A stretch of DNA of 32,000 bases from Microcystis aeruginosa NIES-843. Lineage in GTDB: Bacteria > Cyanobacteriota > Cyanobacteriia > Cyanobacteriales > Microcystaceae. The notes under the pieces were generated by a model, which saw only the letters and a program-made list of their open reading frames with translations, made no database searches and was not told the DNA's origin. This document shows positions 507 to 32,000 of this stretch, one piece after another. Each line of letters opens with the position of its first letter. Positions within the stretch are counted from its first letter, which is position 1. The stretch covers positions 4,740,001 through 4,772,000 of the forward strand of contig NC_010296.1 in assembly GCF_000010625.1 (NCBI RefSeq). The letters are read 5' to 3'. The position numbers and the translations under genes are program-made.

Positions 507-1028
507 TCAGGAAACTGCCGCCGCCGCTCGATCGAAGTAAGAAGCGACTTCTGCTAGTAAAGAACTGCAATCCCCGCGAGTGATCCCGTTGGGATCGGCC
601 GCTAGGGCAAGGGAAGCGTCTTTGAGCTTGAGAATTCCGGCCGCAACAGAAGCTCCCGGAACTCCCAGGGCGACGTAGGTTTCCCGGAGACCGTTCAAGG
701 CGCGATCATCGAGGATGCTGGCATCGCCGGTGAAGGTGGCATAGGTAACGTAGCGCAGGATAATTTCCAAATCCCGCAAGCAGGCGGCCGCACGACGGTT
801 TGTATAGGCGTTGCCACCGGGGGCAACTAAAACGGGCTGTTCTGAAAACAAACTACGCGCGGCATCGGTAACGATCGCAGAAGAATTACTGGAAAGACGA
901 TTGACCACATCCACGCGTTTATTACCATCTTTGACGAAGGCAATTAGGGCATTGACTTGATTCTCGCTCAGGTATTCCCCCCGGGTATCGGCCTGAGAAA
1001 CGACTTTGGCAAAGGCATCTAACACCAT
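507..1028 (-). CDS. cpcB: Phycocyanin beta subunit
   Basis: The product reads ...[18 protein letters not shown]...[17 protein letters not shown]...[10 protein letters not shown]...[10 protein letters not shown], with the Cys-82 and Cys-153 bilin sites present. The track start at 1037 touches the AGGAG at 1042-1038 with no spacer. The ATG at 1028 sits 9 nt from that SD and gives the canonical ~172-173 aa length. Confidence 0.9.
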
Positions 1029-1695
1029 AGTTTTCATCTCCTATAATGATGATTGGTTTCGGCAAAATATCGAGGTTGATTGCTCTGGCTTTTCTTTATT
1101 TTTTCCGATAAAGTATCTAGGAGTTTTTTTCTTGGGACTATACTATCGTCCTTGAAAAAAATTTACTCTCCCTTGGCCAGATTTTTTTGTATATCGAGGA
1201 ACAATTCTTGTTAATTGAATTTAGCGTTTATTGACGCTCCTAGACACACTTCGTTTTTGCCATGAATTATTTTATAAACCATTTTCCTACTTTTATTTAT
1301 TAAAAATTGTTTCCTAAAAAACCAGCAAAAAAATAATTTTTTAGGATAAATCTCAGAAAACTTTTTTAAATGTGTAACCCTATACCAAGAAAAAGTATCG
1401 CTCTTTTCATCTCTCTAATAATTCCTTTAAGTTGTTTAAACAAATGTGCTTTTATATACTAATAATAATTAACTAAATTAAGAGAAATTTCCCAAGACAA
1501 CTTTGCCGATTGTGCTTCGATATACAAAAAAAGTGGCAAGGTAATAAAAATCGACAGGGATTATCCCCGCCGACGTTGTGATCAGAGGTGCCAACACCAG
1601 CATTTTGCAGTGTACTCCGACTTAAAAAGTATTGTAAAACATCTTAAATACATATATAATCAAAAATAGTCAACAAGTATAAAGCAAGTGGGATT

Positions 1696-3623: not shown

Positions 3624-4298
3624 ATGATCAACCGAAATAAGAGCTTTAAAAGCCTCAAAAATCAAGTTTTCCAGCTGCTGATTTTCCTCTTAACTGTCAC
3701 TTTGCTCCTAGGGGGAAGAGGAAATGCGATCGCCTTGCCCCTACTCCCCGAACAGTTGGCCGTCATCGACCGTGCAACGGCAACGGGTGGCACCGTGGTG
3801 GAACCAGTTAAGAAAAAAAATGAGGTTTCTAGCCCAAAAATTCTGGAAGATGCCCAAATTGCCTATGAAAAAGCCATCCAAGCGACAAAATCGGCTATCG
3901 ATGACCTAAAGGCTCAACTAGCCGCTCCTTCTCTCGACAAGAAGATTATCGAAGCTCAACAGGACAACCTAGAGGACTTAGCGGATAATATTGACGATCT
4001 AGGGGAAAAAGTGAGTAAATTTACGAAAAAATTGACCAAATCTGGGGCTAAACTCAGTGAAACCCTGCAAAACAACCTTATTACCCTAGAAAATAGCCTT
4101 GTTAATACCTCCGAGACGATCGATATCTTAGCCGACGACACCGAACGACTCAAAGACAATGCTTCCCCTTTCCTGAAAACTCGCGTGGAAAAGACCATCG
4201 ACGCGGTTAAACAGACTCTACAGGAAAGCGATCGAGCTTGGCAAGAACTGATCTCCTCGGCCACAACGGAACTGGAGAAGACTAGCACCCCGAAATAA
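3624..4298 (+). CDS. Secreted coiled-coil protein, function unknown
   Basis: AGGAG lies 10 nt upstream of the ATG. The N-terminus has a basic region plus hydrophobic signal peptide (LLIFLLTVTLLLGG..NAIA). The rest is heptad-like and rich in E, K, L and D. Confidence 0.6.
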   Translation: MINRNKSFKSLKNQVFQLLIFLLTVTLLLGGRGNAIALPLLPEQLAVIDRATATGGTVVEPVKKKNEVSSPKILEDAQIAYEKAIQATKSAIDDLKAQLAAPSLDKKIIEAQQDNLEDLADNIDDLGEKVSKFTKKLTKSGAKLSETLQNNLITLENSLVNTSETIDILADDTERLKDNASPFLKTRVEKTIDAVKQTLQESDRAWQELISSATTELEKTSTPK

Positions 4299-5710: not shown

Positions 5711-5902
5711 CCAAGAATGCCCAAAAATTATCTTTTAAGTAGGGAGGCAAAATTATTTGTAGGATGGGTTAGCGGTAGCGTAACGTAATCAGGCGTTGGG
5801 TTTCATGCTTCAACCCAACCTACGTTCTCTTGAAAAGTTATATAGCGTTTCCTGTTCGCACTAGGTACATTATCGATGTTGAAAAGCTTAATTAGCAAAG
5901 GT

Positions 5903-6018
5903 TTAAGTGTGCCACACAGGTGTGAGAACCGCTATAAAAGGATTTGTTATGAGAATTAAAAAACAACAGATAGCGGCCGAAGCTTCCTGCAAAAACCGAC
6001 ATCGGCGAATTAATACTA
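5903..6018 (+). pseudogene. Degenerate fragment of an SPFH/band-7 paralog, interrupted by IS630 and continuing at 6969-6990
   Basis: 5951-5993 (gagaattaaaaaacaacagatagcggccgaagcttcctgcaaa) is near-identical to 17808-17850 of the intact SPFH gene. The sequences flanking the IS rejoin as aattaatacTAtttttcaacaaatgg, matching agttaatacTAtttttcaacaaattgg in the intact gene. Confidence 0.75.
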
Positions 6019-6968
6019 TAGTTATTTCAAATAAGAACGAGACACTAGGCGACACAATAAGTACGAATAATTTCATCAAGGGGTGTCCCCACAGGAGCAT
6101 ACATTCTTGCCCTCTTTAATGCACTAAAATCATGTTCGATATCATTTAAATCAGGAGAGTATTTTGGCAAAAACACGACCTGATGACCTGCTTCCTCTAC
6201 CAGTTGTTTAATGACTGTCTTCCGATGAATTGGTGCATTATCCATAATTAATACTGATGTTATGGTTAGAGAGGGCAACAAATATAAAGATAACCACCCT
6301 TCAAAACCTTCGGCATTCAGGCTTCTCGTAAATACCATCGGTGCAATAAAGTCTTTTTTTCCCTTTCTTCTACCAGCGACAAGGTTCTCTCTTTTTCCTC
6401 GTTTTCCTTGTCTATCTCCAAAGACTTTCTTCCCTTTTTTTGACCAAGCATAAAAACAGGCTTGAAATTCTTCAAACCCTGACTCATCAATAAATACAAG
6501 GCTTTCACTTCCATATATTTTAATCAATTCTCTCAGCACTCTGTAGTATTTCATTCTTTCTTCTCGGTTTCTTTCTCTATAACGAAGTTCCTTCTTTTTT
6601 CTGGTAACTTTCATGTTTTTTAAGGCATAGCAAATGGCACTTGGTCTCACTCCAAATTTCTCGGCTCTGTCTCTTAATCTTGCCTCGGGATTTTCTTGGA
6701 CATCTTTTGACAGTGCTTTCCAGTCCAGCTTTCTCTGACGGTGTTTTACCTTTGTTGCTTCCAGTTTTTCCCTACCTAGCCATCTATATATCGTCGCTCT
6801 TCCTATATTAAATAGAGCGGCGGCTTTGGTTATGCTTCCCCCATTCTCTACATAATCGATTACTTTTTTTCTCAAGTCTAGGCTATAAGACATTTTTCTG
6901 TATGGGTTGCTCGTTTCTCTTGATTTTACCTTATTTTTCCCTCGTCTCACACTTATTTGAAATGACTA
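6019..6968 (-). mobile_element. IS630-family insertion sequence (950 bp) with TA target-site duplication
   Basis: The terminal inverted repeats are TAGTTATTTCAAATAAGAACGAGAC (6019-) and the reverse complement of 6944-6968, TAGTCATTTCAAATAAGTGTGAGAC (21/25 identical). TA is present at 6017-6018 and 6969-6970. The empty site can be reconstructed from the paralog at about 17910. Confidence 0.9.
6045..6893 (-). CDS. IS630-family DDE transposase
   Basis: The product begins MSYSLDLRKKVIDYVENGGSITKAAALFNIGRATIYRWL (HTH). It has a DDE-type core (FIDESGF, IMDNAPIHRK, SPDLNDIEHDFSALK). I prefer the start at M20 of the track ORF. Confidence 0.9.
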   Translation of the reverse strand: MSYSLDLRKKVIDYVENGGSITKAAALFNIGRATIYRWLGREKLEATKVKHRQRKLDWKALSKDVQENPEARLRDRAEKFGVRPSAICYALKNMKVTRKKKELRYRERNREERMKYYRVLRELIKIYGSESLVFIDESGFEEFQACFYAWSKKGKKVFGDRQGKRGKRENLVAGRRKGKKDFIAPMVFTRSLNAEGFEGWLSLYLLPSLTITSVLIMDNAPIHRKTVIKQLVEEAGHQVVFLPKYSPDLNDIEHDFSALKRARMYAPVGTPLDEIIRTYCVA

Positions 6969-7064
6969 TATTTTTCAACAAATGGGCATCGCCTATCGAT
7001 GACCGAAATGCTCAACTAAACGCTTCTTTTCTCCCCAAGGACACCCTTACCATACCCCTTATCT

Positions 7065-9215
7065 ATGAGCTACATTGACCGGAATCAATTTTCTGCAACT
7101 TTCGACATCGCCATTATCGGGGGAGGATTTAGTGGTTCCCTCGTGACGGCGAACCTGTTACGCGACACGGGGACTCCATTATCGATCGCCCTGATCGAGC
7201 GCCGAAAACCCCTCGGTACGGGGATCGCCTACGGAACGCGAGACAGCGGCCACCTGCTCAATATTCCTGCGGGCAAAATGAGCGCCTTCGAGGACGATCC
7301 CGAACATTTCCTCCACTGGTTAGCGGATAACGGCTATCGATCGATCGATCCGGCCAGCTTCGTACCGCGTCTAGTGTACGGCAAATACATCCGATCGATC
7401 CTAGAAGAAGCGCGGGACAACGCCATTGCCGATCACCGTCTGGAAACATTTACCGATGCGGCGATCGATCTGGTACTCGACGGGGAAAAGGCGACAATTA
7501 CCCTCAAAGGAGGCAAGAAAATCAGCGCCGCTAAAGTAGTTCTGGCGCTGGGCAATTTTCCCGCAACGGTTCCCCAACCCCTCGCGTCTCTCAATTCCCT
7601 CTATCTCCGCGACGCTTGGGAGACGGACACACTCGCCGAGCTAAAACCCGACGGGACGATTCTGCTCGTCGGTACGGGGTTAACGATGGTGGATATGGTG
7701 GTTTCCCTGGCACAAAGGGGATTCACGGGCAAAATCCACGCAGTTTCCCGTCATGGCCTGATCCCTCGATCGCACCGACCCACCGATCCCTATCCCCCGT
7801 TCCTCACCCTCGAAACCGCGCCCCAGACCACCCGGGGACTCCTACGGCAGATTCGCGCGGAGGTAAAAACCGCCGAGAGTCGAGGTCACGACTGGCGGGC
7901 CGTTTTAAACGCCTTACGCCCGATATCTCAAGGTCTATGGCATTGTCTGCCGATAGCGGAACGCGCCAGATTTCTACGCCACCTGAAAGCCTATTGGGAG
8001 GTTCTTCGCCATCGCGTCGCCGACGAGATCGCCGGTATCCTCGACGAGGCCGTAGAATCGGGACAATTAACCTATCATGGGGGAAGAATTGAAACTGCTG
8101 AGGTTAAAAACGGCTGTGTAGAGGTTACTATCCGTCAACGGGGGACGGGAAACCTGTTAAACCTAACGATCGATCGAATTATTAACTGTACCGGCGCGGG
8201 TAACGATTACCGGACGATCACCGATCCCCTCGTCGTTCATCTTCGCCAACGGGGGTTAATCCGTCCCCATCCCCTAGGTTGTGGCATCGAAACCGCGGAC
8301 AACGGGGCGATTCTCCGGCCAGACGGTACGGCATCGGACACGCTGTACAGCTTGGGAAATCCCCGCAAAGGCGATCTCTGGGAAACCACCGCCATTCCCG
8401 AACTGCGTTTACAGGCGGCCGAACTGGCCCGGGATTTGTTGCGATCGCTGAAAGAGAGAATTTCTCTCCCCACGGCCTACTCGATCGCATTCCGGCCGGC
8501 AGCGCCGATTTTCCGCCAGCTTTTTGATAGGGAATCGAGTACCTACACCTATCTGATCGCTGATTCGGGTACGGGGGAGGCGATTTTAATTGATCCGGTC
8601 CTCGAACAGGTTGATCGCGATCGGCAGATTCTTTGGCAGTTGGGGTTAACTCTAGGCTACACGATGGAAACCCATGTCCACGCCGACCATATCACCGGAG
8701 CGCACCGCTTACGGGAGTTAACCAACTGTTCGATCCTCGTTCCCGAAAACGCCGAAGTGAGCGATATCGATGGTTATGTACGCGATGGCGACCTCTGGAC
8801 CGTGGCAGGTCAGCAGCTAAAAGCGATCGCCACTCCAGGCCACACCGATAGTCATATAGCCTATCTCATCGATGAAAAACGCCTATTAACGGGGGATGCA
8901 CTCTTAATTCGCGGTTGCGGTCGTACCGATTTTCAGAACGGTTCGCCGGAAGTACTATACAAGACGGTGACGGAGAAGTTATTCACTCTCCCCGATGATA
9001 CGCTTGTTTATCCCTGTCACGATTATCTGGGAAGAACGGTCTCCTCGATCGGTGAGGAAAAGCGCTGGAATCCCCGTTTCGCCGGCCGCAATCGTCAGGA
9101 TTTTATTCAGTTAATGAATAATCTCAATCTCCCCTATCCCAAGAAGATGACTGCGGCCTTAAGTGCCAACGCACGGGGTGGTAAGGTGGTTTTCGTCATG
9201 GATTATCAGATTTGA
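7065..9215 (+). CDS. Fusion protein: N-terminal FAD/NAD(P)-binding oxidoreductase domain plus C-terminal ETHE1-type persulfide dioxygenase (metallo-beta-lactamase fold)
   Basis: The N-terminus has the Rossmann motif DIAIIGGGFSGS and a second dinucleotide fold, LLVGTGLTMVDMV. The C-terminal ~240 aa read FRQLFDRESSTYTYLIAD...IDPV...ETHVHADHITGA...TPGHTDSH...TGDALLIRGCGRTDFQNG...YPCHDY...NPR, the pattern I recall for ETHE1/PDO. Confidence 0.85.
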   Translation: MSYIDRNQFSATFDIAIIGGGFSGSLVTANLLRDTGTPLSIALIERRKPLGTGIAYGTRDSGHLLNIPAGKMSAFEDDPEHFLHWLADNGYRSIDPASFVPRLVYGKYIRSILEEARDNAIADHRLETFTDAAIDLVLDGEKATITLKGGKKISAAKVVLALGNFPATVPQPLASLNSLYLRDAWETDTLAELKPDGTILLVGTGLTMVDMVVSLAQRGFTGKIHAVSRHGLIPRSHRPTDPYPPFLTLETAPQTTRGLLRQIRAEVKTAESRGHDWRAVLNALRPISQGLWHCLPIAERARFLRHLKAYWEVLRHRVADEIAGILDEAVESGQLTYHGGRIETAEVKNGCVEVTIRQRGTGNLLNLTIDRIINCTGAGNDYRTITDPLVVHLRQRGLIRPHPLGCGIETADNGAILRPDGTASDTLYSLGNPRKGDLWETTAIPELRLQAAELARDLLRSLKERISLPTAYSIAFRPAAPIFRQLFDRESSTYTYLIADSGTGEAILIDPVLEQVDRDRQILWQLGLTLGYTMETHVHADHITGAHRLRELTNCSILVPENAEVSDIDGYVRDGDLWTVAGQQLKAIATPGHTDSHIAYLIDEKRLLTGDALLIRGCGRTDFQNGSPEVLYKTVTEKLFTLPDDTLVYPCHDYLGRTVSSIGEEKRWNPRFAGRNRQDFIQLMNNLNLPYPKKMTAALSANARGGKVVFVMDYQI

Positions 9216-9570
9216 CATCCTCGCCGCCGTAAAACGGACGGCGATTCCTCACCACGCCACTTTTTTAGGGTGGTCGCGTCAACGGGGTTGACGCTTCACC
9301 GAAAAACGCTTAATTGCTTAAGTCTGACTCTTTCGACCCGTCCGTTTTGAGTGTCCGGATGCCCTCCGGCCACTTTGAACAAGTCGAAAAAATCTAATGT
9401 TCAACCTTATTTCCTAGAAAGTTTTACTCGTTCAAGGCCGAATTTGAATTCTTTTCTGAACAAAACCCCCTACTATCTGTTGTCAAGGTTCAGTTTTTAG
9501 CTTGGTTATCGCTTTTTCCATTGTAGCTTAAAGCCGTCCTAAAAGGACGGGGTTTTAACCCAAATTTTCG
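9212..9570 (-). mobile_element. TnpB-less miniature derivative of an IS200/IS605-family element (359 bp), both ends retained
   Basis: On the minus strand the left end CGAAAATTTGGGTTAAAACCCCGTCCTTTTAGGACGGCTTTA and the right end GGAATCGCCGTCCGTTTTACGGCGGCGAGGATGTCAA match the ends of the tnpB element at 15467-16788. A trace of the tnpB start (ATGGAAAAAGC) is retained. The flanking motif 5' of the left end is TTTAT. Confidence 0.8.
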
Positions 9571-9647
9571 ATAAACGGGCAAGCGATTGATCGCCCCGTC
9601 GGTCCTGCGCTACACTGGATAACGAAACACCAGAGGAGTAAAAGCCC

Positions 9648-9821
9648 ATTCCTACTGCCGCGCAACAGCTAACCTGTTTTATTTTAAGTTATTGGGCAAC
9701 GAAGATGTATTTGCCCGTTAATATTGTTCGGATTGACGAAAGAACGGGAAATATCTTTTTTCTCGCTGGGGAAGAGCAAGAAATTATTATTTTTAAAAAT
9801 GGCGATTGGAGGTATGTATGA
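9648..9821 (+). CDS. Small DUF6888-like protein (not in ORF track); probable ATT start, or a truncated 38-aa form from the ATG at 9705
   Basis: The frame is open from 9642 and reads (I)PTAAQQLTCFILSYWATKMYLPVNIVRIDERTGNIFFLAGEEQEIIIFKNGDWRYV*. GAGGAG at 9633-9638 lies 9 nt before the ATT at 9648. The TGA at 9819-9821 overlaps the next gene's ATG at 9818 (ATGA). The family name is from memory. Confidence 0.55.
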   Translation: MPTAAQQLTCFILSYWATKMYLPVNIVRIDERTGNIFFLAGEEQEIIIFKNGDWRYV

Positions 9822-10030
9822 TAAAACGCGAGTTTGAATCGATGAGTCGCGAGGAACTACGGAGTTATATTCTCGAACATAGAGAGGACGAGAGGGCCTT
9901 TCAAATTTATCTCGATCGGGTGACGGCCGAACCGGGAGAAATTTATCCCGCACCGCGTTCGATCGAGGATTTAAGTCATTTTCCCGAACTGGTAGCGAAA
10001 AATCGCCGCGATAAACAACAGAAAATATAA
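9818..10030 (+). CDS. Small DUF6887-like cyanobacterial protein
   Basis: The product is MIKREFESMSREELRSYILEHREDERAFQIYLDRV...IEDLSHFPELV. GGAGG at 9808-9812 precedes the ATG at 9818. The track's TTG at 9806 is less likely. Confidence 0.7.
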   Translation: MIKREFESMSREELRSYILEHREDERAFQIYLDRVTAEPGEIYPAPRSIEDLSHFPELVAKNRRDKQQKI

Positions 10031-10043
10031 AGCCAATGCACTA

Positions 10044-10631
10044 TTATTTACAGATTTTATACGTTTTCTCGAAAAGCGCGATCCCGTAATTTTCTAGAAA
10101 CTCGATCGCTAGAGATTTCCAAGTCGCATCATCTCTAGGATAAAATTCGGGTGTACAGACATACGCCTCTAGATTCAAGTCTAGATAGTTTTTGTCCAGC
10201 CTTGCGTCGAAATAACTGATCGTGTTGCTTAATTGATTGATCGCTTTACAACGATTTTCAGTAACTTTTTTGGCGCTGGTTGCATTGAATTTAAATTCGA
10301 CAAAGCAGAAATCACTTTTATCGAAAAATACACAATCACAATGGGAAGTTCCAAATCCTAAAAGACCTTTTCTGCCATCAATAGGGATAAAGCCAATTAT
10401 TGTATTGTTGCTAACCTTGAATGTTTTAGTGTCGTCGAAATCGTTAATTAAAATGTCCTCATCGTTCAAGTTAATAGTACAAGTCGAATTCACGGGAATA
10501 TCGATAATGATAAAAGACTGACCATTGTAGTCGATAATTAGAAACTCATGTCTCTCCTCGATTTGTATAAATTGATCGAGTTTGTCTATTTTTTGGGATA
10601 GATAGCTTTTGATTTCGTCAAACTCTGTCAT
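10044..10631 (-). CDS. Unknown 195-aa protein with a PD-(D/E)xK-like signature; putative nuclease effector
   Basis: The start overlaps the upstream ATPase stop (ATGA at 10628-10631). Residues HCD99CVFFDKSDFCFVE112FK114 (DNA 10290-10337) fit D-x12-E-x-K on alternating hydrophobic strands. The gene is AT-rich and contains no HIP1 site. Confidence 0.6.
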   Translation of the reverse strand: MTEFDEIKSYLSQKIDKLDQFIQIEERHEFLIIDYNGQSFIIIDIPVNSTCTINLNDEDILINDFDDTKTFKVSNNTIIGFIPIDGRKGLLGFGTSHCDCVFFDKSDFCFVEFKFNATSAKKVTENRCKAINQLSNTISYFDARLDKNYLDLNLEAYVCTPEFYPRDDATWKSLAIEFLENYGIALFEKTYKICK

Positions 10632-12046
10632 TTGCGTTTAAACGTTCTAGCGTGAATATTATATAGCTTATTAAATTCCCCTCCCATCATTTCGGATACG
10701 GTATCTAGATAATTCTGAGCGATCAATCCCGTGTTACTATCAAAAATAGATTCACAATAATTAGCCTCTTCGTCTAAAGATTGATTTCCTAGAGAGTACG
10801 CCGAAAATTCAGCCGCATTCAACCAGTAATCTTCTGGTATTATTTCCGACACTTCAGACTGTGCCGATGGATTTTTTTCAACAACTCTTTTGGCGAATAG
10901 TAAATTATTAAAAACCGATAAAATATAAGGACTGTGGGTAGTGATAATTAATTGATTATCTTCATTCCGATTAACCATTATCGCTAATAATTCAATTAAA
11001 TGTTTTTGGGCAACTGGAAATAAATGCGCTTCTGGTTCCTCTATAATTCTCAAAATTATCGAACCATAAATAATATTTAAAAAGATGTCCTGTAAAATTC
11101 TAATACATTCCTGCTGACCAGATGAAGCATTACGAAGATCAATAGAATATCGCTCGTTTTTGTTAAATATAATCTTTTCTTCAGAATTGCCAATTAAGTA
11201 TTCACCTTTTAATATTAAATCTATTTTATTTTTTATCACTCTTAAATACTCAATTCCTTTTTTATTTGCCTGATAGTTAATTAATCCATCAAAGCCAGAA
11301 AATTTTCTAAAAATTTGTTTAATAAGTTCCACTTTTTCTATAAATTGTAGCATTAAAAATTCATCTATCATTTGCAGTTTGTTAGCAAAATATTTTTTAC
11401 TATTTTCTTTTAAATCAATTTCAATACTTGCAAATAAATATTTCTCAAATAAGTCAGAATAAGTTACCGTTGCATTTCTTCCAGCAATTATAAATAGTAA
11501 ATCTTCTTGCTCGTTTTCAAATAAATTATTCAATAACTTTGATAGATATTGATAGGATAAACTATACTGGGTCAAATTATCTATTTTGATATATGGTTTT
11601 TCGGAGTTATCAATATTTTTTTTGGACAAATTAATATAATCTGCAAAACCGTTTTTGAACTGTTCATCTAAAAAATTTTCGCTAAATATTAAGCATAAAT
11701 TTTTATTTAAATCAAGATTCAATTGTATATATCTATTTTTTTGAAAACTATAATAAAATCTAACCTCAAAATTCAAAAAATTGAGCGTAGAACCAAAAAA
11801 ATCATAAAACTTTATTTTTATAAATTCTCTAAAATAAGTATCAATATCTGTATATTTCGGTATTTTTTCTTGGGCGAATAAAAAACTTTCAGATTTTAGA
11901 TTTTCTTTTAATGATTTAAAAAAATAAATCAATTTAGCGATCGTACTCTTGCCGCTTGCCTGTTCACCGATTAAAACTAGAACCTTTTTAATCTCGATTT
12001 CAGCGTACTCGATCGCTCCGAAATTTTTAATGATAATTTTTTGCAT
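10628..12046 (-). CDS. ABC/AAA_21-type ATPase (SMC/OLD-like P-loop NTPase)
   Basis: Walker A is GEQASGKST (aa 27-35), followed by a long helical insertion. The signature-like motif is ASSGQQE, Walker B is ILRIIEEPEAHLFP, and the H-loop is ITTHSP. Confidence 0.85.
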   Translation of the reverse strand: MQKIIIKNFGAIEYAEIEIKKVLVLIGEQASGKSTIAKLIYFFKSLKENLKSESFLFAQEKIPKYTDIDTYFREFIKIKFYDFFGSTLNFLNFEVRFYYSFQKNRYIQLNLDLNKNLCLIFSENFLDEQFKNGFADYINLSKKNIDNSEKPYIKIDNLTQYSLSYQYLSKLLNNLFENEQEDLLFIIAGRNATVTYSDLFEKYLFASIEIDLKENSKKYFANKLQMIDEFLMLQFIEKVELIKQIFRKFSGFDGLINYQANKKGIEYLRVIKNKIDLILKGEYLIGNSEEKIIFNKNERYSIDLRNASSGQQECIRILQDIFLNIIYGSIILRIIEEPEAHLFPVAQKHLIELLAIMVNRNEDNQLIITTHSPYILSVFNNLLFAKRVVEKNPSAQSEVSEIIPEDYWLNAAEFSAYSLGNQSLDEEANYCESIFDSNTGLIAQNYLDTVSEMMGGEFNKLYNIHARTFKRK

Positions 12047-12097
12047 AGATGCGTGCGCTCTCTATCCGGCTATAGACCATAGTACCGCAAGCGCTCT

Positions 12098-12822
12098 CTA
12101 CCCCACCATCCCCAACCCGCGACCATTTCCCATTTCCCACCCATTCCCGAAAGTCACGAGAAGATCATTCAACGCTTCCATATCGCCATCCATTAAAAAT
12201 GCGTCGTGACCGTGCGGCGATCGCAACCAGAATAATTCAGAATTGGGGATGTATTTCGCCAACTCCTCTTGTTCCACGGGAGGATAAAGAAGATCCGAAT
12301 CGATCGCCACGATCGCCGTCGGTTGTTGAATCGACTGTAAAACCGATTCGTAACTTTTTCCCGTCCGGGTGACATCATGACGATCCATCGCCCTACTTAG
12401 GGTGATATAAGCATTCGCGTCAAAACGTTCGACTAACTTTCTCCCCTGATATTCTAAATAGCGGGCGATCGTAAACTCTCCCCCCTCCCCGTACTCCCGG
12501 CCGAAACGGGACTCGAAACTGGCGTGCGATCGGTAGGTAGTCATCGCCATCATCCGGGCTGCCGATAAACCCCGGGACGGAGGGCGATCGAGCGCATAAT
12601 TTCCCCCTTGCCAATGGGGATCGGCATAGATCGCTCCCCTTTGAGCCTCTCCTAGTGCGATACACCAGGCCGAATGTCGTCCCGAAGCGGCGATGACAGC
12701 GATCGAGCGCGTCTTCTCCGGGTACAGTAGCGCCCACTCCAAAACCTGCATCCCTCCCAAGGAACCCCCGATCACCAACCGCAAAGACTCGATCCCCAAT
12801 GCGTCCACCAACAGCCGTTGTA
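12098..12822 (-). pseudogene. metX: Homoserine O-acetyltransferase, C-terminal fragment (gene split by IS630)
   Basis: The fragment reads QRLLVDALGIESLRLVIGGSLGGMQVLEWALLYPE...SPHGHDAFL, with the alpha/beta-hydrolase nucleophile elbow GGSLGG. It joins 13961-14329 across a TA duplication. Confidence 0.85.
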
Positions 12823-13960
12823 TACTTTAGACGTTCATAATCTGAGATTTATTAAACTTCTGAAATCGTAGAGTCAGCAAGGAATACAGTTCTTTTTTAT
12901 GTTTCAAATGGGCATCATTCAAACATTCATAAATGGCTGAAGAAAAGTCAGAAAAGTTTTCATAGTATTTACCATACAAACATTTCTTTTTGACAAATTT
13001 CCACAGCCTTTCAATTAAATTTAGATTAGGCGAATAAGACGGCAAATAGAGTAGCTCTATTGACAAAGAAAGAGCCAATTTTTCAACAATTTTACATTTT
13101 TGATAGCGGGCATTATCTAAGACTAGAGTGATGGGAATAGTTATTCCTAAAGCAGCTATTTTTGACCGGAGTTCACAGACTTGAGTTGCTGTAATATAAG
13201 TGTCATTCGTAACCAGAATAACTTCATGAGTTATTGCATTTAATGCTCCTAAAACATTGAAGCGTTTACGCCCGCTCGGTGACTTAACAAAAAGTCTCTC
13301 AAAACACCAAACAAAACCGAGAAATGCTCCCATGACGAAGTGAGCGGCATCAACAAAAAAAACAGCCCTTTTTCCTTCTTTAGCCTCATTTAGTCTGGGT
13401 TCTAGCTTTTTTTCTTTGTAGTCCTCTTGTTCATCTGGGTCAGCTTTAGAAGGAAGAGAACCTACTTTTAAACATTTCATTCCCATTGATTTTAAAAATT
13501 TTCTCACTTGGGTAGGACTTCGTTTTATTCCCGTTAATTCTTCTCTCCTATATACAGCTTCATTTATTGTGGCTGGTGGATTTTTCTCGAAGTATTTTTT
13601 GAGCGTTTCTTTTTGAGACTCTAATTCACTTTTAGGGCGATAGAAGTTGATTTCTTTTAATTTTTCTATTCCGCCTTCTTCATAATCTCGAAGATAGGTT
13701 AATAAGGTATTTGGCGAGATTCCTGCTAACTGACAAATTTTTTTGTGCGGTATCTTTTGGCTCTTTAACCAGAGAACTTCCATCTTCAGTTGAACCCGGG
13801 GATGGGGATGATGAAATCTTTCCTAAGACAGTGAGTTCTTTTCTTCTTCCGTGAATTCTAGGTTAATCATGTTTTTAATGAGTGCTTTGCTTCTAATTAT
13901 GACTCTTAAACTATATTATTGTCCTTGAGTAAAAAATGCAAGTTGTAGCCGTGCAAAGTA
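12823..13960 (-). mobile_element. Second IS630-family insertion sequence (1138 bp), TA duplication, inserted in metX
   Basis: TA is present at 12821-12822 and 13961-13962. The ends are TACTTTAGACG... and the reverse complement TACTTTGCACG.... Removing the element restores gat ctg gtt cac cTA caa cgg ctg, which reads DLVHLQRL in MetX. Confidence 0.85.
12827..13870 (-). CDS. IS630-family transposase carrying an in-frame TAG at codon 16 (track ORF 12827-13783 is the part after the stop)
   Basis: From the ATG at 13870 the frame reads MINLEFTEEEKNSLS*ERFHHPHPRVQLKMEVLWLKSQKIPHKKICQLAGISPNTL..., with the TAG at 13825-13823. The DDE core includes FVDAAHF, VLDNARYQK and SPNLNLIERLW. Confidence 0.8.
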
Positions 13961-14344: not shown

Positions 14345-17112
<2,768 letters not shown>

Positions 17113-17604
17113 TCAATTTATCGAGATATCCTGTATACAGAATATCTTTTATGCCGAAACTAGATTGTGTTAAGGTAATTGCTACAAAAGAAAGTACCAG
17201 CTAGACTGGTGGAATGAGAATGTACCATTTAAGACAAGGGAAATTTTGTTATAATTGTTTCTGGATAATCCCGATTCCTTTCTTGGACAAATAAATGCTT
17301 TTTTGGTCAAGTTTCTGACTAAAACTAACGAGATAATCGTTTTGATTCATGATTAGTAAAACATTTAATCGGCGACTATGGTAACTATAAATAGACAATT
17401 ATTTCCCGATATTTTGCCAGCCAGAAGGAAAAAATAACGAGGCTAAATCTGACTTCATCTAAATAATATAGGACAACTTTACCTTCATTTTCTAGTTGAT
17501 AAAATTCTTAAGGTAGATAAAAATATCGCTAATTATCAACATAAAATTAGTCATTTTATTTATTTGCAAAACTATCCTATCAACCATCTATATTATCAAT
17601 TAAA

Positions 17605-18411
17605 ATGCTCAAAATTCGTCTTTTAGCTAGACCAAGTAATCTCTTTTTTTTGTTATTAATTTTGGCGATTATTTTTAATCCTTTCGTGATTGTTAATGCG
17701 GGAGAAAGAGGAGTTTTAATGGTCTTTGGTCAAGTACAGGATAAAATACTTAATGAGGGTATTCACGGGATTATTCCCGTTGTTAACACGGTGAAAAAAC
17801 TAAGTGTGAGAATTCAAAAACAACAGATAGCGGCCGAAGCTTCCTCCAAAGACCTACAGGAAGTATTCACAGATGTGGCCCTGAATTGGCATATTTTAGC
17901 ATCAGAAGTTAATACTATTTTTCAACAAATTGGCGATGAAGCGGCTGTCATTGAACGAGTGATCGATCCAGCAGTGGAGGAAATTCTCAAGGCAGTTATG
18001 GCTAAATATACCGCCGAAGAATTAATTACTAAACGGGAGGAGGTGAAAGGGGAAGTAGATATTCGTTTGAGCGAAAGACTGAAAAATTATCATATCGGTG
18101 TCGATGATATTTCTTTGGTTCATGTCAATTTTTCCGATCGCTTTACCGATGCGGTGGAAGCCAAACAAATTGCCGAACAGGAGGCCAAAAAAGCCGGTTT
18201 TATGGTGCTGAAAGCCTTGAAAGAATCGGAAGTAAAAATCAATCTGGCTAAGGGAGAGGCGGCAGCTCATCGCATTCTCCAAGATTCCTTAAGTCCAGAA
18301 GTTTTACAGAACAAAGCGATCGAAAGATGGGACGGTAAACTTCCCCTATTTATGGATGATAATCTGCTTAAGTCCCTTGAATTGGCTAAAGATAAGCGAA
18401 AAACTAGATGA
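17605..18411 (+). CDS. SPFH/band-7 (prohibitin-like) membrane protein
   Basis: An N-terminal TM helix is followed by GERGVLMVFGQV...GIHGIIPVVNTV and a coiled C-terminal region (AKQIAEQEAKKA). Confidence 0.85.
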   Translation: MLKIRLLARPSNLFFLLLILAIIFNPFVIVNAGERGVLMVFGQVQDKILNEGIHGIIPVVNTVKKLSVRIQKQQIAAEASSKDLQEVFTDVALNWHILASEVNTIFQQIGDEAAVIERVIDPAVEEILKAVMAKYTAEELITKREEVKGEVDIRLSERLKNYHIGVDDISLVHVNFSDRFTDAVEAKQIAEQEAKKAGFMVLKALKESEVKINLAKGEAAAHRILQDSLSPEVLQNKAIERWDGKLPLFMDDNLLKSLELAKDKRKTR

Positions 18412-23893: not shown

Positions 23894-24246
23894 CGGAAAT
23901 TTTGGGTCTGAAACCCCGCCGTTCTAGGTTGGCTTTACGTTAGAATTAAAAGGCCAGTCTCGAAAACCAAGTGGACGGCGCAGCACCTTGAAAACTCGGC
24001 TTAGGGGGTTCCGACCAGAAAAGCTTGGCCGGGTAAAAAGTCGCGCGCAACAAGTACAAGAAGCTATAGGCGGTCAACGTACCGTGGGACACACGGAATC
24101 GGGCTTCTGAAATGGGGCGAAAGTCTGTGGACTCTGTGTAAGACAGTACATGGTTTTTTAACTGTGGTATGCGACGGTGGTGGAAGCAGAAACTTAAATC
24201 GTGAGGTTTAGGAATCGCCGCACTTTTAGGGCGGCGAGGATGTCAA
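23894..24246 (+). mobile_element. Second TnpB-less miniature IS200/IS605-family derivative (353 bp)
   Basis: The left end CGGAAATTTTGGGTCTGAAACCCCGCCGTTCTAGG and the right end AAATCGTGAGGTTTAGGAATCGCCGCACTTTTAGGGCGGCGAGGATGTCAA match the tnpB element. Its interior shares ordered patches with the 9212-9570 copy (aaccaag, accttga, tagggggtt, cagaaaag). The motif 5' of the left end is GTCAT. Confidence 0.8.
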
Positions 24247-29737: not shown

Positions 29738-32000
29738 TCACTCTCTCCCTTCAATAATTTTAATTTCTTCCTCGCTTAATCCATAGAGTTTATAAACAAT
29801 TATATCGATCAATTCATCGGTGGCGCTTAATTGTTGTTTTAGGGGCAAAAGTTTATCTAGACTGGTTTGATATTCTTTTTCTAGGGTTTCCTGTATTTGA
29901 CGATCAAGTAAGTTAACGGTAATTTTCTTTTTGTTCTTTTTCAGTATCTCCCACAGTTGATCCAAGCTAAGATGAGGTTCGCTTTTTTGGTAGTCACCGA
30001 GATAGTTTTGGATTTTTGATTTGTTGGTTAAATTATCGATCGCACTGCCGATTATTCTCTCTAAATATCTTAAAAAGCTTTTGATTTCTTTTTGTTTTTC
30101 CCGATTTATCTCGATCATCTGTTCTGCTAAGTAGGCCAGAATATCATGGACTATATCGGTTTCCTCTCTCCTAATATGTTCCTCGATTTCTTTTAATATC
30201 TCTTGCTTTTCTTGATAACTTTTGATAAGTTTCTCTAAACACTGTTGACGGCGATCGCTTTTGGTGTTAAAAGATATTTTTCGGATGGGGATATTTTGTA
30301 AATGTATCGATCTAAGTTCAAGTCTACCTCCAGCATCCTCATCACCTAAAACAGAAACCATGAGTTTAGTAACATTAAAAAGCAACTTTGAGTTAAGCAA
30401 AGCAAGAAGATAAAAATCAGAACAAGGGATAATAAAACATTTATCATTGGGAAAATAACCTTGATTATCAAGCATGAAACGAGAGGAACTTGCAATAACA
30501 GGATATATAATTTTAGGATGCTCAAAAAAAGTCCAATAATCTACAGTGTCTTGTATCTCATACCACTTATAATTACCAGCTTTTCTTCCTTGCCAACTTC
30601 CTGAATGTAGTTCTGGTTTAGGTTCTAATTTACTTTTAAATTTTTCTAAATGTTTTTTGATAGTTGGATATTCATTAATGTTAATACCACGCCGAGTAAA
30701 TATCAAAAAATTTTCTTGATAATTAATTTCATATTTTCTAATGTCGTCACCTACTACTAACGGTTTAATTATTTCTGCTGACTTTGGATCAGATTCAATT
30801 AATTTACTACGGGTATATTGATCAATAAGAAATGCTTCGTTACATCCTGTTATTATTCCACGATAAATCTGATTGTTTACATATTCACTCAGAAAAACAG
30901 CTTTTTTTTGTAATTTTTCGACAATTGTAGCAATCTGATTTTTAGCTAACGACCAACCTTCCACAGACAAGCTATTTTCACATACATAATATGACAGATC
31001 ATTAATCACATCAATTAAACTATTGAATTTGAGAGACTTAATCTTTGATATTAAAACATTTTGTTGACCTACAATATTATTTTCAATCAGTAGAATAGAT
31101 GGAAAAGTTGCCGCTTCCGAAAAAACAGGCAATTCTCCAAAATCGATAATTTCTTTTATAGTTGTTTGCTGGGTTAGAAATTGTCTTAATTTCGTTCCAT
31201 AATTAGCACGCATAAATTTATTTGATATAATCAAACCCAAGTGACCTCCTTGCTGTAAGGATAGTAACCCCATTTCGACAAAATAAACGTATAAATCGGC
31301 AACTCCATGAAAAGATTGATAATTTTCTTTTAGAAAGGGTTTAATATCTTTTAATCCTTCTTGTCGAACATAAGGAGGATTACCGATTACTGCATCAAAA
31401 CCGGGGTTATCTTTCCAAGAAGCGGAATCAAGATCGATAAAAACTTCAGGAAATTCCAGATCCCAATGAAAAAAGCGCTTACTTTTATATAAACTAGCTG
31501 CCTGGTCTAAAATTCCTTGATCTGAACGGGGTAACTTATCCCAATTAATTGCCGATATATTGCCACCGTAGCGCTGCAGAAACTCGATAGCAGTTTTAAC
31601 CCCAAAAAAGCGAGAAAGGAAAACATCTAATAAACGCTTGTAGGGTTTAGCTTGACTATCAAAATCACGGAATAACTGTTCACTTGCTTCCACTTCGGCA
31701 AAAGTCGCATCGCTGAGGGTACTAATTCCCCGCATAATTTCCGCGGCCCGAAGTAACCCAACAAAAGGGCCAGTTAAAAGAGTTAATTGACCACTTTCTT
31801 CCTCGATCATAGCGGCTTCTGCGTCCTTAGCGGTAGTTCCGATCAGAGAGTTCCCACAACGCAAATGATGATCCAAAAAACTCAAAGGTGCGCCCACTGT
31901 GAAAGAATGTAACCAGAGACTAACTTTGGCCAATTCTACAGCCATCGGATTGATATCCACCCCATAAATACAGCGCTTCATCACCACTCTCTGTAATAAT
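29738..32000 (-). CDS. Eco57I/PglX-type N6-adenine DNA methyltransferase with TaqI-like C-terminal specificity region (type IIG/IIL RM or BREX-like); N-terminus lies beyond the window
   Basis: The frame is open to the edge (...LLQRVVMKRCIYGVDINPMAVELAKVSLWL). It contains FHWDLEFPEVF, the catalytic motif IV VIGNPPYV, and the family's typical C-terminal VYKLYGLSEEEIKIIEG. The gene is AT-rich. Confidence 0.85.
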   Translation of the reverse strand, partial: LLQRVVMKRCIYGVDINPMAVELAKVSLWLHSFTVGAPLSFLDHHLRCGNSLIGTTAKDAEAAMIEEESGQLTLLTGPFVGLLRAAEIMRGISTLSDATFAEVEASEQLFRDFDSQAKPYKRLLDVFLSRFFGVKTAIEFLQRYGGNISAINWDKLPRSDQGILDQAASLYKSKRFFHWDLEFPEVFIDLDSASWKDNPGFDAVIGNPPYVRQEGLKDIKPFLKENYQSFHGVADLYVYFVEMGLLSLQQGGHLGLIISNKFMRANYGTKLRQFLTQQTTIKEIIDFGELPVFSEAATFPSILLIENNIVGQQNVLISKIKSLKFNSLIDVINDLSYYVCENSLSVEGWSLAKNQIATIVEKLQKKAVFLSEYVNNQIYRGIITGCNEAFLIDQYTRSKLIESDPKSAEIIKPLVVGDDIRKYEINYQENFLIFTRRGININEYPTIKKHLEKFKSKLEPKPELHSGSWQGRKAGNYKWYEIQDTVDYWTFFEHPKIIYPVIASSSRFMLDNQGYFPNDKCFIIPCSDFYLLALLNSKLLFNVTKLMVSVLGDEDAGGRLELRSIHLQNIPIRKISFNTKSDRRQQCLEKLIKSYQEKQEILKEIEEHIRREETDIVHDILAYLAEQMIEINREKQKEIKSFLRYLERIIGSAIDNLTNKSKIQNYLGDYQKSEPHLSLDQLWEILKKNKKKITVNLLDRQIQETLEKEYQTSLDKLLPLKQQLSATDELIDIIVYKLYGLSEEEIKIIEGRE

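Follow-up and report, generated by a model that had tools for sequence, protein, structure and literature searches.

The chromosome of the cyanobacterium Microcystis aeruginosa NIES-843 carries, within the stretch of 32,000 nucleotides that we analysed (contig NC_010296.1, positions 4,740,001 to 4,772,000; "the window"), a two-gene cassette that encodes an ATPase of 472 amino acids and a small protein of 195 amino acids. A first-pass annotation, made by a model from the DNA letters alone, had described two minus-strand open reading frames (ORFs) in which the stop codon of the first overlaps the start codon of the second, and we found them as described (Table 1). At the local composition (27% and 35% GC), the chance probability of stop-free runs of this length is ~1e-18 for 472 codons and 6e-7 for 195 codons. 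Judged by its sequence matches, the cassette is a member of the PADLOC candidate defence family PDC-M29, in which it forms part of a divergent cyanobacterial branch.

The larger protein is an OLD/PtuA-like ABC ATPase (AAA_15/AAA_21). It matches the Pfam models AAA_15 (2.6e-28) and AAA_21 (2.5e-16), and a Walker A motif, an ABC signature, a Walker B motif with catalytic glutamate and an H-loop are all present, in that order and at the places where the first-pass annotation had put them. An AlphaFold (AF2) model of the protein has a predicted local distance difference test score (pLDDT) of 84 and a predicted template modelling score (pTM) of 0.88. The best Foldseek matches of this model in the PDB are PtuA structures (from Septu and retron-Septu complexes), followed by Rad50, AriA, GajA and the Thermus OLD nuclease, all with a probability of 1.00 and E-values of 1.4e-9 to 1.3e-6. 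The insertion domains differ, which keeps the corresponding TM-scores at only 0.3-0.5. The sole significant match to a PDB sequence is the OLD nuclease 6P74 (3.2e-6). These neighbours bear out the earlier placement of the protein among the sensor-type ATPases of defence systems. A long insertion of ~270 amino acids, described earlier as helical, is indeed present between the Walker A motif and the signature, but it is not purely helical: in the model, strands of the ABC core are interleaved with helical segments.

The ATPase ends in a C-terminal extension that lies outside the AAA_15 and AriA models but is aligned to positions ~270-408 of the 410 positions of PDC-M29A, both in the window protein and in eight partner ATPases of related loci. 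Among divergent Microcystis alleles, this extension is 90-97% conserved. It may dock the effector.

The small protein matches no Pfam or NCBIfam family, in keeping with the earlier remark that no family was recognised for it, but it does match the PADLOC model PDC-M29B. It has 112 close homologues, and a profile search of 1.84 billion representatives yielded 453 clusters at E <= 1e-3. Nearly all of these are stand-alone proteins of 170-210 amino acids, and the conserved portion corresponds to approximately residues 65-195; matches to distant members begin near residue 65, so that the N-terminal domain is not conserved in them. Across an alignment of 124 members with identities as low as 21%, E112 and K114 never vary, and conservation of at least 90% is seen at D85, C98, D99, F110, Q133, P165 and F178. 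The motif D99-x12-E112-x-K114, on which a PD-(D/E)xK nuclease had been proposed, stands at the residues originally named.

The AF2 model of the small protein (pLDDT 93.4, pTM 0.91) begins with a helix and a beta-rich domain, followed by three strands, a long helix, a strand and a helix. In model numbering, which is the full-protein numbering minus one, these elements are strands 78-82, 99-102 and 106-112, helix 119-144, strand 152-158 and helix 168-181. D99 precedes strand 2 directly, E112-x-K114 lies at the end of strand 3 and Q133 lies within the helix. The succession strand-strand-strand-helix-strand, with an aspartate before strand 2 and ExK on strand 3, is the canonical PD-(D/E)xK layout, and the model thus has the predicted alpha-beta-beta-beta-alpha-beta core of that superfamily.

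Searches with the small protein and its relatives point the same way, mostly through weak matches. The top of the Foldseek list against the PDB consists mostly of PD-(D/E)xK nucleases (Nt.BspD6I, XPF, EcoT38I, the small subunit of R.BspD6I, Hef, Hjc and SfsA), with probabilities of up to 0.97 but E-values of 0.03 or worse; the match to Nt.BspD6I has a probability of 0.97 over 94 columns, at a root-mean-square deviation of 3.6. Nine Pfam families are matched at E <= 1 by two or more of the 124 members. Those that we take to belong to the PD-(D/E)xK clan number six, namely SduA_C (8 members), HSDR_N_2 (5), HSDR_N (3), PDDEXK_9 (3), NERD (2) and SfsA (2), the best E-value being 5.8e-4. A few members also match the PADLOC models HEC-02B, PDC-M47B and CARF_PDDEXK. 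Taken together with the conserved residues and the topology of the model, this enrichment of the weak fold and profile matches in PD-(D/E)xK proteins makes it very probable that the small protein belongs to the superfamily, as first proposed.

Table 1. Features of the cassette and of the adjoining metX end (positions are those of the window)
Feature	Position	Strand	Basis
ATPase ORF, 472 aa, OLD/PtuA-like ABC ATPase (PADLOC PDC-M29A-like)	10628..12046	-	ORF, hidden Markov models and structural model
Small-protein ORF, 195 aa (PADLOC PDC-M29B-like), predicted PD-(D/E)xK nuclease effector	10044..10631	-	ORF, hidden Markov model and structural model
ATGA stop/start overlap, 4 nt, putative translational coupling	10628..10631	-	Same junction in relatives
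Walker A GEQASGKST, aa 27-35	11942..11968	-	G27, G32, K33, S34, T35 invariant in 27 homologues
ATPase variable insertion region, aa ~41-300, putative sensor module	11147..11926	-	Low identity between Microcystis alleles
ABC signature ASSGQQE, aa 307-313	11108..11128	-	S308, S309, G310, Q311 invariant in 27 homologues
Walker B / D-loop ILRIIEEPEAHLFP, aa 331-344	11015..11056	-	E336, E337, P338, E339, A340, H341, L342 invariant in 27 homologues
H-loop ITTHSP, aa 368-373	10928..10945	-	I368, T369, T370, H371, S372, P373 invariant in 27 homologues
ATPase family-specific C-terminal extension, aa 377-472, putative effector-docking region	10631..10918	-	Conservation and PDC-M29A alignment
Small-protein variable N-terminal helix and beta-rich domain, aa 1-77	10401..10631	-	Model strands 22-73; allele divergence
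Predicted PD-(D/E)xK core, aa 78-195: beta1, D85, beta2 (after D99), beta3 (E112-x-K114), alpha (Q133), beta4 (E155), alpha	10047..10400	-	
Small-protein codons of D85, D99, E112, K114, Q133	10377-10379, 10335-10337, 10296-10298, 10290-10292, 10233-10235	-	
metX 3'-end segment, recurs as 64-73-bp direct repeat bounding cassettes in other Microcystis	12094..12164	.	Copies in L006, L061, L062

Membership in PDC-M29 was assigned from matches to PADLOC hidden Markov models (HMMs) and from gene order, rather than by the PADLOC system rules. The ATPase matches PDC-M29A (PDLC04562) with an E-value of 1.3e-28 and an alignment that extends to position 406 of 410. The small protein matches PDC-M29B (PDLC04563) weakly (8.8e-8, 30 bits) over positions 17-155 of 164, and the same model is matched by 120 of its 124 relatives, at best with 1.2e-23. 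For all eight partner ATPases (8/8), PDC-M29A is the best system-specific model, and the alignments cover the C-terminal extension that is missing from generic AAA_15-type models. As in PDC-M29, the genes are adjacent on one strand in the order A, then B.

The PDC systems are 145 candidates that were drawn from genes lying inside BREX, DISARM and type I restriction-modification (RM) loci (Payne et al., bioRxiv 10.1101/2024.01.29.577857). The same source lists PDC-M29 in Table S8 as cassette CAS_00123, FAM_00005>>FAM_02872, with the number 110, and shows FAM_00005 also at the head of HEC-01 and several other PDC cassettes. PDC-M29 is therein a catalogue label for a candidate, and the accessible text describing it does not state the function of B. 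A cold-seep study of eight tested candidates left PDC-M29 out (PMC12881386). The cassette differs from the catalogued family in its context: the copies that served to define PDC-M29 lie inside BREX, DISARM or type I RM loci, and those that we examined stand alone among housekeeping genes.

The first-pass annotation had proposed an uncharacterised system with a new type of effector, on the premise that known ATPase-nuclease pairs use only HNH or Toprim/DUF4435/RloB-type effectors. That premise is out of date. OLD-ABC ATPases are paired with HNH, PD-(D/E)XK-REase or PIN nucleases in 594 taxa (PMC12839542, citing Krishnan et al. 2020). PD-T4-4 of Escherichia coli, a validated defence against T4, consists of a PD-(D/E)XK nuclease and a P-loop/ABC nucleoside triphosphatase (NTPase) that form higher-order complexes and are inactive on the DNA substrates tested (bioRxiv 10.1101/2025.07.10.664194). 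HEC-02 combines an ABC ATPase with a NERD protein, is protective and requires both genes (bioRxiv 10.1101/2024.01.29.577857). Because both proteins match the PDC-M29 models, and because the architecture of ABC ATPase plus PD-(D/E)xK protein already has validated representatives in PD-T4-4 and HEC-02, the cassette is not a new system.

The cassette differs in part from each of these two systems. PD-T4-4 has the same two-gene architecture, and its PD-T4-4_A HMM aligns with residues 3-454 of the window ATPase (positions 2-448 of 460, E 2.4e-17), but this ATPase scores higher on PDC-M29A. PD-T4-4_B is matched neither by the window small protein (E <= 1) nor by any of its 124 relatives (E <= 1e-3). 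HEC-02 likewise pairs an ABC ATPase with a stand-alone effector of the PD-(D/E)xK superfamily, and relatives of the small protein weakly match HEC-02B (3/124) and Pfam NERD (2/124). However, the window small protein matches neither, and HEC-02A is not among the best 25 PADLOC models of the window ATPase.

Septu is also a dyad of an ATPase and a small nuclease, and PtuA structures, including those of retron-associated PtuAB, are the top Foldseek matches of the window ATPase (9n69, 8sux and 8eea; E 1e-9 to 1e-7). Its PtuB is an HNH nuclease, however, and the small protein has no HNH or PtuB match in Pfam or PADLOC. PARIS (AriA/AriB), Gabija (GajA/GajB) and OLD share the OLD-type ABC head, as seen in PADLOC matches to AriA and GajA and in Foldseek matches to 8v46, 8ux9, 8u7i and 6p74. 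Gabija differs in that the 472-residue window ATPase has no Toprim match, that the GajA matches cover only the Walker B region (approximately residues 330-400), and that no helicase ORF lies beside the window pair. The strongest AriA match (PDLC02979) might have filed the cassette under PARIS. This assignment was rejected for two reasons: an AriB partner is missing (Pfam and PADLOC gave the small protein no match to AriB, DUF4435 or Toprim), and the model acts like a generic AAA_15 domain model, a view suggested by its length and alignment span, which equal those of Pfam AAA_15.

The two genes behave as a unit. Querying the GTDB representatives of 185,579 species with the small-protein alignment A1 gave 47 loci, in 42 of which the ATPase gene lies directly upstream on the same strand. 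Of the five exceptions, two lie at contig ends (L024, L044) and three are decayed remnants (L013, L035, L050). Five more distant relatives of the small protein (P0200, P0230, P0250, P0185, P0160) also adjoin an ATPase. The ATGA junction is kept in all 36 intact loci that could be evaluated, in both Cyanobacteria and Bacteroidota. The surroundings of the overlap are conserved as well in these two groups (L008-L049), with the consensus AAGAA(A/G)ATGA, which encodes the C-terminal K/R-K of the ATPase and may at the same time provide the context for ribosome binding at the small gene. The predicted co-occurrence of the pair is thus borne out.

Hosts of the pair are scattered over four phyla. They include Microcystis, the Anabaena/Dolichospermum/Aphanizomenon group, Pseudanabaena, Snowella, several Bacteroidota, a Caenarcaniphilales metagenome-assembled genome (MAG) and Caldilineaceae. 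In each of the 23 loci checked, the GC content of the pair is 25-38%, which is 4-16 points below that of the flanks. The window fits this pattern, and the cassette is as AT-rich as was first remarked, with a GC content of 0.297 compared with 0.55 for the FAD-PDO gene, 0.548 for metX and 43.7% for the whole window. Decayed copies also occur: in Anabaena lutea (L013) the ATPase is reduced to residues 7-53 beside the small gene, and in L035 and L050 (Trichormus azollae) only truncated fragments of the small gene are left. Such copies indicate that the system is dispensable and has been lost in some lineages. The low GC content in every host, the patchy taxonomy, an empty-site allele (below) and the decayed remnants support the earlier proposal that the cassette was horizontally acquired and, with the flanking repeats, mark it as mobile and accessory.

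One further argument for foreign origin was dropped. The HIP1 octamer is indeed absent from the cassette, and a scan of the window found none between 8823 and 12217. With 16 sites in 32 kb, ~1.0 would be expected per 2 kb, and the probability of finding none is 0.37. Because this absence is not significant alone, the compositional argument rests on GC content.

The local gene order is metY, metX, ATPase gene, small gene, DUF6887 gene and a FAD-NAD(P)-binding/metallo-beta-lactamase gene, and in Microcystis the 3' end of metX looks like a flexible hotspot of cassette exchange. In M. novacekii (L006), the cassette lies between copies of a 64-bp direct repeat of the metX 3' end (6473-6536 and 8781-8844) that are 95% identical; the window has one copy only. 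A metagenome scan with this repeat as query recovered two informative alleles (L061, L062) and others with different cargo. L062 is occupied, with repeat copies at 3759-3784 and 6068-6093 flanking the cassette. L061 is a clean empty-site allele with one repeat copy (826-898), and equals L062 minus the cassette, with an overlap of 73 bp. Other cargos found in this slot are a 512-residue protein of no known kind, a 308-residue protein with a MazF/PemK toxin, a two-component system (histidine kinase/response regulator) with a large surface protein, and giant FG-GAP/RTX proteins. These alternative cargos are AT-rich. At the other end of the cassette, a DUF6887 gene of 74 codons (9806-10030, plus strand) is convergent with the small nuclease gene. 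In L062 the cassette is accompanied by 89 bp of the DUF6887 gene, which places its likely boundary within that gene.

Alleles of the cassette in Microcystis diverge by module. Between the window and M. novacekii, nucleotide identity is 95-97% in the flanks and 81% in the cassette. Within the ATPase, amino acid identity between alleles is 100% over residues 1-40, 30-60% over residues 41-300 and 75-97% over residues 301-472, and the nucleotide identity of the insertion region is 44-73%. The small protein is ~50% identical over residues 1-75 and 83-97% over residues 76-195. In a metagenomic Microcystis contig (L057), the ATPase and the nuclease domain match those of the window at 97-100% identity, and identity falls to 58-70% in a patch of ~300 bp that corresponds to the N-terminal domain of the small protein. 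In this mosaic (908-1495, compared with window 10400-10700), the ATPase is 98% identical to that of the window, the N-terminal ~77 residues of the small protein are ~50% identical, and the small protein as a whole is 90% identical to the M. novacekii allele. The mosaic implies that the ATPase insertion and the small-protein N-terminal domain are exchanged independently. Specificity determinants caught up in an arms race would be expected to diverge in this modular way, although the sequence pattern falls short of proof.

These data allow a further proposal, which we advance only tentatively and consider possible rather than probable. PDC-M29-type dyads might have two independently exchangeable specificity modules, the ATPase insertion of ~260 residues and the nuclease N-terminal domain of ~77 residues, that are shuffled by recombination among co-existing Microcystis strains, while the whole cassette enters and leaves a slot dedicated to it beside the metX 3' end, bounded by 64-73-bp repeats.

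As to function, we assign a probability of roughly 0.65 to the reading that the two genes form a nuclease-NTPase defence candidate of the PDC-M29 family, one that is horizontally mobile, resides in the metX 3'-end hotspot and has a presumed defence phenotype. The mechanism that we propose follows Septu, PARIS and PD-T4-4: the ATPase (A) would oligomerise by ATP-dependent engagement of its heads and would bind the small protein (B), probably through the conserved C-terminal extension, holding the nuclease inactive. The hypervariable ATPase insertion, the variable N-terminal domain of B, or both might recognise a cue derived from the phage. Recognition would alter the state of the ATPase and free or activate B, and activated B would then cut nucleic acid (DNA, or possibly tRNA or other RNA) and so halt the infection.

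A number of results weigh against this reading. A tblastn search with the small protein found no match in phage and plasmid collections, a promoter and terminator scan gave no signal above background, and the literature searched contained no experiment on PDC-M29. Genomic context is not that of a defence system either. When two genes on each side were surveyed in 32 loci (116 proteins), the pair was not near other defence genes; neighbours were mostly housekeeping genes, commonly ribF, MoxR, SecA, PsbO, GidB and metX, with only scattered PADLOC matches. The alternative cargos of the metX slot have no PADLOC matches and include no recognisable defence systems. A defence-island context, which the first-pass annotation had anticipated, was therefore rejected for the sampled genomes. 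The solitary context does agree with the remark of Payne et al. that embedded candidates associate less with other systems (bioRxiv 10.1101/2024.01.29.577857). The remaining adverse results concern the nuclease assignment. Foldseek with the small-protein model found nothing at E <= 1e-3 either in the PDB (best E 0.03) or among the viral structures of BFVD, where the matches were mostly unnamed proteins with a few weak nuclease-like ones. Small-protein profiles (A1, A2) found nothing meaningful among PDB chain sequences. An hhalign comparison with Hjc of Pyrococcus furiosus (1GEF) set D99/E112/K114 in register with D33/E46/K48, but without significance (E 0.05-0.1); it was run against the single P. 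furiosus sequence and against a shallow Hjc family profile, for which only Thermococcales Hjc homologues were retrieved.

The lack of matches at conventional significance would fit a small protein that is not an active nuclease, but a PD-(D/E)xK-like scaffold or another fold serving as an adaptor or nucleic-acid binder, with the ATPase as the functional core. PD-T4-4, which did not cleave DNA in vitro, also speaks for this view. We nevertheless judge this quite improbable, because the invariant E112 and K114 and the near-invariant D85, D99 and Q133, which persist down to 21% identity, amount to a preserved active-site signature, and because the conserved residues occupy the canonical positions of the predicted fold. 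A different alternative accepts the nuclease and takes it to be a toxin restrained by the ATPase, in a selfish addiction module of toxin-antitoxin (TA) type that is kept by post-segregational killing or by hitch-hiking in the hotspot and has no dedicated anti-phage role. The pair is solitary and AT-rich, it sits outside defence islands in a flexible hotspot where a MazF/PemK toxin cassette occurs too, its tight translational coupling is typical of TA pairs, and the Pfam entry for AAA_21 calls it a putative AbiEii toxin domain. On the other hand, the candidate family was derived from genes within BREX, DISARM and type I RM loci; phage defence is the role of all the closest characterised architectures (PD-T4-4, HEC-02, Septu and PARIS); and hypervariable putative sensor modules are unexpected in a simple addiction module. 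An addiction module is therefore unlikely, and TA-like behaviour and abortive infection are in any case not mutually exclusive.

Housekeeping neighbours could also be read as a sign of a chromosomal ATPase-nuclease complex for DNA repair or recombination, which would serve genome maintenance as Rad50/Mre11 or SbcCD do. The ATPase has Rad50 as one of its structural neighbours, the resolvases and repair nucleases Hjc, XPF and Hef are among the fold matches of B, and in Nostocales the loci repeatedly adjoin ribF (12 of the 116 neighbours scanned) and MoxR (10). A maintenance function is hard to reconcile, however, with a pair found at only 47 loci among representatives of 185,579 species and scattered over four phyla, with presence/absence polymorphism within Microcystis and decayed copies, and with a consistently foreign GC content. 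Parts of the proteins that are 30-60% identical between strains whose flanks are 95-97% identical are likewise unlike a conserved housekeeping function, and we regard this alternative as highly improbable.

Turning to the surroundings of the cassette, the window has 97% nucleotide identity to M. ichthyoblabe FBCC-A1114 (L008) and is syntenic with an M. novacekii MAG (L006/L009). The insertion sequences (ISs) and the insert resembling a miniature inverted-repeat transposable element (MITE) that had been noted around the cassette are present. An IS630-family element (12823-13960) interrupts metX, which encodes a homoserine O-acetyltransferase-like protein (Abhydrolase_1), and an IS605/TnpB element (15467-16784) splits metY (Cys_Met_Meta_PP), of which the first ~78 codons are lost; both genes are uninterrupted in M. 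ichthyoblabe and M. novacekii. A second IS630 element lies at about 5748-7058. The MITE-like insert of 358 bp (9214-9571) is not in M. ichthyoblabe, has the short inverted repeats AAAACGGACGG / CCGTCCGTTTT, and recurs as a partial second copy at 24210-24244. Other strongly AT-rich stretches of the window (1001-1500, 17001-18000 and 30001-31500; GC 0.29-0.35) may be further acquired genes, and an ORF of 749 codons (29738-31987) lies mostly inside one of them. An Rfam scan found no families.

If a defence function of the cassette were shown, PDC-M29 would pass from a catalogue entry to a validated system, and the class of ABC-ATPase/PD-(D/E)xK systems that includes PD-T4-4 and HEC-02 would gain a cyanobacterial example. 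The Microcystis alleles, with conserved catalytic cores and swapped variable modules, form a series of ready-made chimeras for mapping specificity. Should the proposal of two specificity modules prove true, the cassette would represent a sensor-effector system that recombines naturally in bloom-forming cyanobacteria, and its trigger logic would be new for OLD-ABC systems. Its presence/absence polymorphism could help to account for differences among strains in susceptibility to cyanophages during blooms.

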